Both the position numbers and the translations under genes were made by a program. This document shows, piece after piece, positions 17,523-21,572 of a stretch of 43,308 nt of DNA. The stretch is from a virus (lineage: Duplodnaviria; Caudoviricetes). Location: IMG/VR virus record IMGVR_UViG_3300048998_000214, positions 1 to 43,308 of that record, one strand, 5' to 3'. Numbering within the stretch: position 1 is the first letter of the stretch; every line of letters begins with the position of its first letter. Below the pieces are notes generated by a model. It did no database searches and was not told the DNA's origin. It saw only the letters and a program-made list of their open reading frames with translations.

Positions 17523-17692
17523 CGCACGATGGCCCGCAGCAGGTCGAGCGCGGCATCGGCAAAACCGAGCGCGAAGCTCACCCCGGTGTCCGCGTCGTTG
17601 GCGTCCACAAAGCCGACGACATCGCGCAGCGACTTGCCTTCGCGGAACGCAGCACGGCCGCGCTCGTAGCTCGGTGCGTCGATCTTGTTCAT
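17519..17692 (-). CDS. 57-aa protein, possible Rmf/CrpP-like fold (not in ORF track)
   Basis: My translation: MNKIDAPSYERGRAAFREGKSLRDVVGFVDANDADTGVSFALGFADAALDLLRAIVR; ATGA overlaps at both ends. Confidence 0.65.
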   Translation of the reverse strand: MNKIDAPSYERGRAAFREGKSLRDVVGFVDANDADTGVSFALGFADAALDLLRAIVR

Positions 17693-17922
17693 GACGCGCG
17701 GCTCTCCAGAAAGCGGACGGCATCGCCGACTGTGTGAAACGTCTCGATGGTGGCGTCATCGATCTCGCAGTTGAATGCTTCCTCGAATGCCATCACGATT
17801 TCGATGCGCTCCAGATCATCGGCGCCGAGGTCTTCGCAGAAGGTCGCTTCGTCGGTCACCTTGTCGGCCACGACCTTGAGGTGCTTGACGATGATCTCCT
17901 TGGCGCGCGCGCCGATGCTCAT
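17689..17922 (-). CDS. Acyl carrier protein homologue lacking the phosphopantetheine serine
   Basis: 77 aa aligning end to end with AcpP, but DLGADDLERIEIVMAFEEAF replaces DLGADSLDTVELVMA.EEEF; also has TVGDAV. Confidence 0.9.
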   Translation of the reverse strand: MSIGARAKEIIVKHLKVVADKVTDEATFCEDLGADDLERIEIVMAFEEAFNCEIDDATIETFHTVGDAVRFLESRAS

Positions 17923-17936
17923 CAGCTCATTCCGGG

Positions 17937-18629: not shown

Positions 18630-19637
18630 TTACGGCAGCCAGGGCACGACGAGCAGCTCGGCGGTGCCAGCCCAGGGGTTCGACTCGCCGCCGTTGACCA
18701 ACAGCGAGTTGAGCAGCTTGCGGCCGGCGCCCTCATTGGTCGAGCCGACCACCAGCAGATCGGGCTGGTTGCCGAGCGGGCGCGCGTAGTCGCCCTTCAT
18801 GCCGATGATGGCGTTGCGCGCCGTCTCGTAATGCGTGGCGTCGAGCGTCTGCTTCGAACCCCAGGCGAATTGCCAGAAGCCATAGCCGACATTGCCGCGC
18901 GCATCGGAGCCGTAGATGAATTCCTTGTTCATGAACACGTTGTCGTCGTCGAGCTTGTCCTTGGCGACGAACTGGAAATCGCGGCGCTTCTGCAGGATGA
19001 TCGGCTTCAGCACGCGCTTGGTGCAGAGCAGATACCAGGCCGCGCCGGAGCCGCCATCGGTGTTGGCGACCGACTGCGGCACGCCGGCGGCATCGAGCAC
19101 CGGATGATCGGTGTCGAAATAGAACTGGCCGTCGTAGCAGGTCTTGCTGAAGCCGTCGGAGACGCACTGCCACACCATGCGCTCCCACTCCGAGCCGGTG
19201 GACTCGCCCATCTGCTGAAACAGCGTGCCGTAGATGCCGAGATTATCGGTCTCGATGTCGTCGCGGTCGACGCCGATGGTCAGCTCCAGCGCCTTCTCCT
19301 TGATGGAGTAGTCGTGCTGCGCCAAGTTCTGCACGACGCGGGGACCGATCCATTCGCGCACGCCCGGCATCTTGCCGAGCCAGCCGTATTTCTGCTCCTT
19401 GGTGGTCGACGGCACGACGGTCGCGACCCGCGTATATTGCGTGGGCGCGACGCCGAGCCCTTGGTCGAAAGCCGTGCTGAAGGTGACGCGCAGGCTGTCG
19501 AGATTGCCGGCGTTCACGAGCATCGCCATGGTGACGCCGGCGCCGACATCGTGCGCCGGGGCGAGCATCGCGATAGCGACAACAAGGCACACGATCACGG
19601 CGACCGTCAGCGCCAGGTGAAGGGATTTAAGCATCAA
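18630..19637 (-). CDS. Major capsid protein (Mu gpT family) with hydrophobic N-terminal extension
   Basis: YGWLGKMPGVREWIGPR, ELTIGVDRDDIETD, CYDGQFYFDTDHPV, GYGFWQFAWGS; AGGAG RBS at 19644-19648. Confidence 0.95.
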   Translation of the reverse strand: MMLKSLHLALTVAVIVCLVVAIAMLAPAHDVGAGVTMAMLVNAGNLDSLRVTFSTAFDQGLGVAPTQYTRVATVVPSTTKEQKYGWLGKMPGVREWIGPRVVQNLAQHDYSIKEKALELTIGVDRDDIETDNLGIYGTLFQQMGESTGSEWERMVWQCVSDGFSKTCYDGQFYFDTDHPVLDAAGVPQSVANTDGGSGAAWYLLCTKRVLKPIILQKRRDFQFVAKDKLDDDNVFMNKEFIYGSDARGNVGYGFWQFAWGSKQTLDATHYETARNAIIGMKGDYARPLGNQPDLLVVGSTNEGAGRKLLNSLLVNGGESNPWAGTAELLVVPWLP

Positions 19638-19681
19638 GGTGGACTCCTGGTTGGTGGCGTCTTGGGGTTACGTCGGCGCGA

Positions 19682-20458
19682 TCAGTCGCGCTCGATTTCG
19701 AACATGGCGTTGGCGACGGAGGCGGTGGCGTTGCTGCCGCCCACGGTGAGCGAGAGCTCGCCGCCGACCGGCACGACATTGGCGGCGGTCGGAACGGCGG
19801 TATCCTTGTCGCCGGCGGCGGAGCCGGCCTGGGTGATGGTGATCACGCCATTGGTGATGGCGACCCCATCGATCTTGCCGGTGAGCGTCGCGTCGCCGGT
19901 GGTGAGCACGCCTTCGATCACCGACCAGATTTTCACGACGCGGCCAGCAAACGGCGACAGCACCCGGTAGACGTTGGCGCCGACCAGCGTGGCGACGCGC
20001 ACCGGCACGAGCACCCGGCGATAGGCGAGATAGGCGGCGAGGTTCTCTTCCTCGAAACAGACGTGCACGCCCTGCGCGTCGAGACCGACGACAACACCGG
20101 CAACGGAGCGCGTGTTGCTGCCGTTGGTCTTGGCGACGGTCTGATCATCGACGATGTAGCAAAGCGAGCCGATGTCATCATCGACGATCTCGTCGCCGCC
20201 GGCCGAGTTGGCGACGCGGAACACGCCCTCCATGACATTGATGCTGAGGTCGCCGGCGGCGCCCGCGCTATTGTCGATGCGTTGGCGCGCGATGCCGGCG
20301 CCGCGATAGCCGACCGCGGTGGCGCCCTTGGCGGCGTAGCCGGTCGAGCTGCGCATGACGATGGCGCCCGCGTAGATCAGGGCGCTCGCCGCCACCAGCA
20401 TCGACTTCAGTTCGCCCGCGACGCGCGGCGTATTTCGATCCCCACTCAGAGCGGTCAT
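19682..20458 (-). CDS. Capsid decoration/cement-like protein with an extra C-terminal domain
   Basis: MTALSGDRNTP...IYAGAIV...CYIVDDQTVAKT typical of the gene before the capsid, plus about 115 extra beta-rich residues. Confidence 0.75.
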   Translation of the reverse strand: MTALSGDRNTPRVAGELKSMLVAASALIYAGAIVMRSSTGYAAKGATAVGYRGAGIARQRIDNSAGAAGDLSINVMEGVFRVANSAGGDEIVDDDIGSLCYIVDDQTVAKTNGSNTRSVAGVVVGLDAQGVHVCFEEENLAAYLAYRRVLVPVRVATLVGANVYRVLSPFAGRVVKIWSVIEGVLTTGDATLTGKIDGVAITNGVITITQAGSAAGDKDTAVPTAANVVPVGGELSLTVGGSNATASVANAMFEIERD

Positions 20459-20510: not shown

Positions 20511-21086
20511 TCAGGCGGCTCGCTCGCTGGCGAGTTTCTTGGCGACGGCATCCTTCGGCACGCCGACCAGCTCGGCGATCCTGGCCTGATCGGCGTTGAG
20601 CGCGACCTTGCCGTCTTTCAATTCTTCGGGCGGCGTGACGAGCGCGCCGGATGCACCGAGGATCGGCATCGCGCCGATCTCTTTCTCGACGCGCGCGGCA
20701 TCAACCGCATGCATCGCGATGTAATGCTCGCGCAGCGGCTTCACGCCGACGCGGCCCTTCGCGATCTCGCCATCGACGTAAGCCGTGGCGGTCTTCTTCG
20801 CGCCATCAGCCTGCAGCGTGTTCAGCTTGGTGGTGACGGTGGTGAGCTCAGCCTGCAGTGCGGTGATGGTGGTCGCATCGGTCTTGCCGGCGGCGAGCGT
20901 GGTCACCGCGCCGAGGATGGCGGTGGCATCGGCATCGTCCTTCAGCCCGGCGGCCTTGGCGATCGGCGCCAGCGCGGACTGCAAAGCCGTCGAGGTCTTT
21001 AAGTCCTTGACGGCGGTGAGCGTGATCTCCTCCGTGGCATCGTCCTTGAGGCCGAGGGCAGCACGAAGCTTCGCGAGAAAATCCAT
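20511..21086 (-). CDS. Nested in-frame scaffolding protein (Mu gpZ-like)
   Basis: Internal ATG (MDFLAKLRAALG) behind CAGGAGTCCAAC; 191 aa helical; same arrangement as Mu I/Z. Confidence 0.8.
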   Translation of the reverse strand: MDFLAKLRAALGLKDDATEEITLTAVKDLKTSTALQSALAPIAKAAGLKDDADATAILGAVTTLAAGKTDATTITALQAELTTVTTKLNTLQADGAKKTATAYVDGEIAKGRVGVKPLREHYIAMHAVDAARVEKEIGAMPILGASGALVTPPEELKDGKVALNADQARIAELVGVPKDAVAKKLASERAA

Positions 21087-21572
21087 GTTGGACTCCTGAT
21101 GGAGCGCGGCCATGCCGCGCAGGTTGGGTCGATTGATCAGCGAGGCCCGCAGAATGCTGAGGACCTGATTGTCGGCGCTGTGGTGGATGACGGGCGAAAT
21201 GTAGCGGTAGGCGCGATCAGCCATCAGCGCGGCGCCGGACGGTGTCCACTCGGCTTTGCCCCAGATGCTGCCATCGGCATGCGCCTCGATGCCTACGATC
21301 CAGCCGCGCGCCGGCGCTGGTTCGCCGCGCGGAGCGGCAAGGTCGGTGGCGTGGCACTCGTCGATCGGAAGCGGACCGCCCGCGGCCTGAAGGCTGGCGG
21401 CGGCGAGCGCGACCGCATCGGCAACCTTGTAGGGACCGCGGCCATCGACTGTGCGGATGGAGGCGCCGGCCGGCCACAGCATGATTTCGGTCGGCGGCTT
21501 CCCGTCGACCGCCTGCAGTGCCACCGAATCCAAAATTGCGGTAAGATGCTTCCCCGGCATGGCGTGCACCAT
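20511..21572 (-). CDS. Prohead protease (Mu gpI-like)
   Basis: LPIDECH, APARGWI, EWTPSG, YRYISPV, ASLINRPNL; start 21572 or 21560. Confidence 0.92.
   Translation of the reverse strand: MVHAMPGKHLTAILDSVALQAVDGKPPTEIMLWPAGASIRTVDGRGPYKVADAVALAAASLQAAGGPLPIDECHATDLAAPRGEPAPARGWIVGIEAHADGSIWGKAEWTPSGAALMADRAYRYISPVIHHSADNQVLSILRASLINRPNLRGMAALHQESNMDFLAKLRAALGLKDDATEEITLTAVKDLKTSTALQSALAPIAKAAGLKDDADATAILGAVTTLAAGKTDATTITALQAELTTVTTKLNTLQADGAKKTATAYVDGEIAKGRVGVKPLREHYIAMHAVDAARVEKEIGAMPILGASGALVTPPEELKDGKVALNADQARIAELVGVPKDAVAKKLASERAA

Follow-up and report, generated by a model that had tools for sequence, protein, structure and literature searches.

A hydrophobic, membrane-type leader on the major capsid protein of a Mu-like phage

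It is generally assumed that tailed phages build their HK97-fold heads from soluble subunits, and the contact with the membrane that is known for them, as in T4, is made via the portal. Neither the pro-region of the T4 capsid protein gp23 nor the delta domain of the HK97 capsid protein is known to be a membrane-type hydrophobic helix. The coat protein of M13 is made as a procoat with a leader, is inserted as a hairpin in the inner membrane, and is extruded through the envelope. Here we describe an N-terminal hydrophobic leader on gpT, the major capsid protein of a Mu-like transposable phage that is represented by the virus record IMGVR_UViG_3300048998_000214. The whole 43.3-kb record (43,308 nucleotides) was analyzed and is called the window below.

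The closest described proteins are gpT of Mu and gp38 of JBD30 (PF10124, phrog_371; 9JOD, 8RKC), which resemble the window protein in the core and in the gene order gpI, structural gene, gpT. However, their solved chains begin at the position of residue 37-38 of the window protein and carry no leader: the Mu and JBD30 chains (9JOD and 8RKC) align from residues 38 and 42 onward, leaving no room for one. Among the 100 of 320 GenBank phage matches that were listed, none starts before query residue 26, and the Villandry and Mx4 matches that start there were rejected as leaders because they reach upstream of the annotated gene start. The 'sig_peptide' and 'transmembrane' features of a Salinibacter phage gpT were likewise discarded as a precedent, since the feature spans the whole gene and there is no hydrophobic leader. 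In two Salinibacter RefSeq records (L132:2372-3379 and L134:604-1875), sig_peptide features cover the entire genes for a major head protein and a protease and look like annotation artifacts. A literature search over titles and abstract openings, which did not reach the classic papers on the Mu head or most other subscription literature, found no report of a hydrophobic leader on a Mu-type gpT. Among other phages, digestion by gp21 of T4 proceeds from inside the prohead and takes off the N terminus of gp23 (PMC9958956), and in 'Nixviridae' prophages of Porphyromonas gingivalis, some major capsid proteins carry signal peptides that are likely cut by prohead proteases (PMC10367356).

Start site and coding of the leader

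The gpT core occupies positions 18630..19523 on the minus strand. Its full-domain match to PF10124 (E 3.5e-115, 385 bits, residues 45-333) and its match to phrog_371, together with the Mu-like head module around it, place it in the Mu-like major capsid family. The HK97 fold is indicated by an AlphaFold model (pTM, the predicted template modeling score, 0.79), by Foldseek matches that are HK97-type capsids, and by phmmer matches to 8RKC and 9JOD. Upstream of this core and in frame with it, an open frame of 37 codons (19524..19634, minus strand) runs from an ATG at 19634, with a TTG at 19637 as the alternative start, into the usual-looking start MLVNAGNL at 19523. Homologous leaders occur in 13 other sequences.

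A first-pass annotation made from the letters alone had proposed that an AGGAG at 19644..19648 (minus strand) is the only clear Shine-Dalgarno (SD) sequence for gpT and that 19523 has none, and our calculations agree with it. The spacer from AGGAG is 6 nucleotides to the TTG and 9 nucleotides to the ATG. Pairing computed against an anti-SD motif amounts to -6.9 kcal/mol at the leader start versus -1.7 kcal/mol at 19523/19529, and at the other in-frame start-like codons through codon 40 it is never better than -2.5 kcal/mol. The 60 nucleotides around 19523 fold locally with -27 kcal/mol and place the ATG inside a hairpin, and the value around the leader ATG is -9.6 kcal/mol. Among sequencing runs matching the stretch, no RNA run was listed, and the one DNA run, which may be the source of the window and shows no differences from it, is not independent evidence.

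The same annotation had asked whether gpT homologs keep the leader as an open hydrophobic frame. Of 371 sequences searched, 355 gave a gpT match, seven of which were dropped because upstream DNA or the core start was absent, and the remaining 348 collapsed to 277 distinct loci. An in-frame hydrophobic extension was scored as a leader when its best 15-residue Kyte-Doolittle mean (KD15) was at least 1.5; the highest value among all other loci (257) is 0.99. By this measure, 20 of the 277 loci bear a leader in a set that was enriched by targeted queries, and less targeted scans gave 3/78, 3/79, and 1/25 (about 4%). By estimate, IMG/VR as a whole has about 4100 stretches with a gpT locus. The hits L085, L086, L088-L091, L093, and L094 were chance pattern matches outside gpT and were dropped. 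All 20 leaders have an SD-preceded start codon (19 ATG and one GTG), and the window and seven related loci share a GGAG located 6 to 9 nucleotides upstream of the leader ATG. The window-type family comprises seven loci and seven proteins with the motif P..H..GG...A, and the other leaders, at 13 loci, are 36 to 57 residues long on cores that are 42 to 59% identical to that of the window. Five of the other 119 best protein matches are annotated long with a recognizably related leader. A profile search added three leader clusters, and a cluster look-up gave further members.

The hydrophobic frame with its own SD is thus kept, and in several relatives it holds the sole possible start. The usual-start ATG is absent in 13 of the 20 leader loci, where it is replaced by Leu or Ile codons and once by TTG. 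The close relatives L019 and L020, as well as P0016, have Leu there. Nine leader loci contain no ATG, GTG, or TTG within the first seven core codons, and it is for this reason that a minor membrane-bound isoform, as suggested in the first-pass annotation, is not supported as a general explanation. Among the leaderless loci, 245 of 257 have ATG or GTG at the usual start, the remaining 12 have a Met within three codons, and of 75 leaderless relatives examined for it, 72 have an SD of -3.4 kcal/mol or better directly ahead of the core ATG. The core start of five window-type relatives pairs at -4.8 to -4.9 kcal/mol through GGCGG or GGTGG codons, and these may therefore use a minor internal start.

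Substitution patterns also argue that the stretch is coding. Between the leaders of L082 and L096, 6 of 30 synonymous sites versus 1 of 84 nonsynonymous sites have changed, and the corresponding counts for L082 and L083 are 7 of 29 and 5 of 85. Among these close leaders, GC content at third codon positions is 0.74 to 0.95, and lengths differ by whole codons only. The leader shared by L001 and L095 has an in-frame six-codon insertion that repeats a K-W motif, giving it a longer basic region and 44 residues in total. Judged by these substitutions, close leader copies are under purifying selection, and the leader is very likely translated, which would make gpT a 334-residue precursor.

We also examined whether the leader travels apart from gpT. 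A hidden Markov model of the leader matched only gpT 5' ends among the loci compared at that stage, and a search of 50% clusters gave 11 matches that all fell on the core part; an Atlas feature search gave no usable match. The ESM Atlas does hold a gpT cluster of 181 members with a 338-amino acid representative, whose model aligns with residues 1-38 of the window protein. It may be a further leader-bearing gpT, or the cluster may be the window protein's own.

Anatomy and distribution of gpT leaders

The basic N-terminal region and hydrophobic core read earlier from the letters were both recovered. The window leader has a single Lys (K3) followed by an uncharged run of 21 residues at positions 7-27 (19554..19616, minus strand), which is predicted to form a helix. 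Its best 19-residue Kyte-Doolittle mean (KD19) is 3.05, versus 0.87 for the gpT core, and 19-residue segments of gpT cores reach 0.6 to 1.1. Only one of 2340 tiles of 37 codons across the six frames of the window reaches 3.0, and this is probably the leader itself; none of 20,000 shuffles of the leader DNA, 9116 of them open, reached 3.05. AlphaFold models from alignments of 95 and 26 rows place a helix at residues 2-23 and 2-22, respectively, followed by an ordinary capsid core. A second uncharged, weakly hydrophobic stretch of 16 residues (residues 30-45; 19500..19547, minus strand) spans the A37|M38 junction between leader and core, and an uncharged Gly-rich stretch of 12 to 24 residues lies over the junction across leaders.

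Charges were counted in 26 leaders (L249 was left out) and junctions in 27. Ahead of the helix there are 51 Lys or Arg and one Asp or Glu in 189 residues, and every leader has one to three basic residues there (26/26). From helix to junction, the 484 residues include no Lys or Arg and 34 Asp or Glu. Under the positive-inside rule, the basic flank of a membrane helix stays inside, and this asymmetry therefore predicts an N terminus inside and a linker outside. The last leader residue (P1) is Ala in 19 cases and Gly in eight, hence 27 of 27, whereas Ala and Gly make up a fraction of 0.37 at P10-P2; note that these 27 leaders are related by descent and are not 27 independent cases. All 14 window-type junctions have Ala at -1 and a small residue (T/S/A/V) at -3, have V, L, or F at P4, and combine a small P1 with a hydrophobic P4 and P2', the last being inherited from the core. 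Rhomboid protease substrates carry a small P1 and a large hydrophobic P4 and P2' (PMC2941825).

The A-P-A triplet that had been proposed as a processing site is present in the window leader, but it occurs in only 4 of the 14 window-type leaders. It was rejected as the cut site because it is not conserved, and the small residue that is conserved is the one at the leader/capsid junction. Pro stands directly before His or Asp in 8 of these 14 leaders. Under a loose small-X-small rule, sites are found in 11 of 14 window-type leaders and in all 13 other leaders, which are rich in Ala and Gly.

The leader is an optional minority trait that has been repeatedly gained or lost. On a FastTree phylogeny of the 277 cores, 13 changes between leader and leaderless states are required, of which at least nine are forced by well-supported branches. 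An IQ-TREE analysis of annotated proteins gives seven changes, but annotated short forms can be wrong: P0204 is a short call of locus L092, which carries a leader, and gene callers can evidently miss this element. The cores nearest to that of the window (L005, L010, and L063) share up to 79% identity with it, have no leader, and start from an SD of their own. Related window-type leaders are found on separate core lineages, which suggests that the window-type leader spread by recombination exchange or underwent many losses. One Astrobacterium genome (Astrobacterium formosum Astr-EGSB) has two leader-bearing gpT genes and one leaderless gene, and the trait is thus not set by the host. Of 401 sampled genomes of its family, 36 had a match, and among 25 scored a leader was present only at that genome's locus. 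The best-scoring relatives that bear an organism name are mostly alphaproteobacterial.

Within the head module, gpT (18630-19637) follows gpI and a structural gene. The gpI prohead protease/scaffold gene is full length (20511..21572, minus strand; PF10123, phrog_328). Such a gene lies upstream in 18 of the 20 leader loci, the other two being cut short, and its His motif is visible in most. The gpI part after YxSP has a median length of 241 residues in 11 leader loci versus 240 in 123 leaderless loci. Because the scaffold part is equally long, the leader does not replace a scaffold in the manner of the HK97 delta domain. The intervening virion structural gene (19682..20458, minus strand; phrog_1731 on residues 1-134) likely encodes a capsid cement protein and has no leader. 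A gene of this kind lies upstream of gpT at 19 of the 20 loci with a leader and at 233 of the 257 without one. At 258 amino acids, its product in the window extends about 120 residues beyond the usual 133 to 138. This long form is common to the window, L001, L095, L096, and L081, and because it also occurs beside leaderless gpT (L005/L006), it is not tied to the leader. No leader-specific partner gene was evident in a comparison of five leader genomes with eight leaderless genomes, and no phage-encoded rhomboid was found in 11 virus records, five of them at least 90% complete. Both host genomes examined encode a rhomboid, and the two named hosts are Alphaproteobacteria.

A possible membrane stage and its rivals

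In the loci with no second start, every capsid subunit would be made with a leader and yet has to finish up as cytoplasmic protein. Since an ordinary Sec signal would send the capsid domain out, the chain must either turn back across the membrane or have a helix that stays out of it. The distribution of charges favors insertion, which we consider somewhat more probable than its opposite, and the invariably small last residue of the leader favors a cut at the junction, such that removal of the leader near the junction is likely. If gpT N termini face inward like those of gp23, embedded leaders would have to be removed before the shell closes, and this would point to a host membrane protease, an agent that we name only tentatively.

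Our preferred model, which draws on the sequence comparisons above and which we consider quite possible though short of an even chance, is that gpT is first inserted in the membrane as a precursor and that a membrane protease of the host then cuts it at A37|M38. The upstream placement of the SD would cause gpT to be made with its 37-residue hydrophobic leader, which would insert in the host inner membrane with its basic N terminus in the cytoplasm. An acidic Pro/His loop would face the periplasm, and the weak Gly-rich junction stretch would return the capsid domain to the cytoplasm, forming a procoat-like hairpin. A rhomboid-type protease of the host could then cut between Ala37 and Met38 before shell closure and thereby release an ordinary Mu-type capsid subunit. 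Such an optional membrane step might hold capsid subunits and meter their release.

Several observations weigh against this model. AlphaFold assigns no confidence to residues 24-37, and the models contain no hairpin. The stretch spanning the junction is weakly hydrophobic, with a best 15-residue mean of 1.11 in the window and 1.1 to 1.85 across leaders. The match to the rhomboid motif is a loose one: the residue at P2' comes from the core, a large hydrophobic P4 is found in only 17 of 27 leaders, and Ala or Gly at P1 would suit signal peptidase or gpI equally well. Rhomboids were encoded in 14 of 14 control genomes and are thus nearly universal, and their presence in the hosts consequently says little. 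Distant pairs of window-type leaders show similar synonymous and nonsynonymous rates. Finally, a lower charge at the core N terminus of leader-bearing gpT, which appeared in an unpaired comparison (Fisher p 0.006), vanished against the nearest leaderless relatives (two with fewer charges, two with more, and 12 equal) and was abandoned.

The agent of the cut could instead be the phage's own gpI acting after shell assembly, with the leader, a pro-peptide like that of gp23 or the HK97 delta domain, serving as a hydrophobic assembly aid inside the prohead or as a membrane hold for a few subunits. This arrangement, which we rate as unlikely, would make use of a protease that is encoded upstream of nearly all leaders, mostly with a visible His motif, and it resembles T4, for which PMC9958956 describes the removal of 65 N-terminal gp23 residues by gp21 and the assembly of proheads on the membrane. 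Prohead-protease cleavage has also been proposed for the signal peptides on Porphyromonas phage capsids (PMC10367356). However, the scaffold length is unchanged in leader loci (241 versus 240), the strict partition of charges between the two sides of the helix matches membrane insertion, and membrane-embedded N termini on all subunits would be hard to square with a closed shell that is cut from inside. A leader that is translated but kept, or cut without consequence, would be an addition that the phage tolerates and that adjusts expression, the rate of folding, or contact with lipids. Its optional nature, the nine or more forced gains or losses, and the host genome with both kinds of gpT would fit, as would the viability of 80alpha with either precleaved or uncleavable capsid protein (PMC5744158). 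We nevertheless find this improbable given the purifying selection in close copies and the convergence of unrelated leaders on one charge layout and on Ala or Gly exactly at the junction.

If the leader were a Sec signal peptide whose signal peptidase I site is the junction, then part of gpT would be exported as a decoy or for disposal, and capsids would be built from a short isoform starting at Met38. The n/h/c-like layout with its N-in charge bias, the Ala at -1 with a small -3 residue at 14 of 14 window-type junctions, and the junction Met that is kept in the window and in 7 of the 20 loci are all as expected for such a signal. It is made quite improbable by the nine leader loci with no start-like codon in the first seven core codons, which could yield no cytoplasmic isoform and in which export of all gpT would conflict with cytoplasmic head assembly. 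Moreover, Met38 of the window has no SD and lies inside a hairpin, and about 10 residues separate the hydrophobic run from the junction, whereas signal peptidase usually cuts closer than that. There is very little likelihood that the stretch is untranslated or acts as an RNA element, with translation starting at 19523. Most relatives do start at the equivalent ATG, but 19523 has no SD, L019/L020 and P0016 have Leu at the core start, and conservation is at the level of codons. In addition, the leader region gave a folding z-score of -1.45 and no Rfam match.

Genome setting and comparison with known systems

Profile searches of the window proteins identified, on the minus strand, the Mu transposase, MuB, gp27, portal, gpF, gpI, gp36, and tail genes. 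A 78-amino acid acyl carrier protein gene (17689-17925, minus strand; NF002151 at 95 bits, above cut-off; PF00550) lies within the head-tail module, flanked by the FluMu-N gene and the gp36 gene, which is an odd place for it in a Mu-like phage. The other strand encodes, close to the end of the genome (1109-2245, plus strand), a 378-amino acid protein with about seven predicted membrane segments, for which no Pfam or NCBIfam match and no match in 12 compared phage genomes was found. Its product is possibly a cell-surface-modifying moron.

The leader is a real, optional, membrane-type element on a capsid protein of the Mu family. With such a leader on all of its subunits, the assembly of a tailed phage would include a stage at the membrane and might also depend on a protease of the host. 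More broadly, some tailed phages might pass an HK97-fold capsid protein through a membrane 'procoat' stage that ends with release by a host intramembrane protease and that Mu-like phages would have gained and lost many times with unrelated leaders; the idea is a doubtful one. Such a stage could govern when or where heads are assembled, or it could keep free subunits out of sight of capsid-sensing defenses. The family is suited to testing these proposals, because it offers leader and leaderless sister phages about 20% apart in gpT, one strain whose prophages include both types, and solved structures of leaderless capsids.

The gpT leader is a variant of capsid pro-peptides with a proposed membrane step. 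Like the gp23 N-terminal region (65 residues cut by gp21; PMC9958956) and the HK97 delta domain, it is an N-terminal extension outside the mature shell and is probably removed. Unlike these, it is optional among close relatives and leaves the scaffold gene intact. Prp is a soluble protease of Firmicutes. In the Staphylococcus phage 80alpha, this host protease cuts leaders on both capsid and scaffold proteins, the capsid leader is short, and cleavage is dispensable (PMC5744158). The gpT leader differs in having a 21-residue hydrophobic run and an Ala/Gly end, in being on gpT only, and in its alphaproteobacterial named hosts. Providencia TatA, a rhomboid substrate, offers a parallel in its N-terminal extension that is cut after a small P1 residue (PMC2941825). 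The 'Nixviridae' capsids likewise have a predicted signal-type leader on a tailed-phage capsid protein with cleavage proposed, in another phage group and host phylum, and the available portion of that account (PMC10367356) contains no analysis of start sites, selection, or topology. M13 procoat is the model for the hairpin, but the M13 coat is itself a membrane protein, whereas gpT has to finish as a soluble cytoplasmic protein, and the hydrophobicity of its second segment is far lower.
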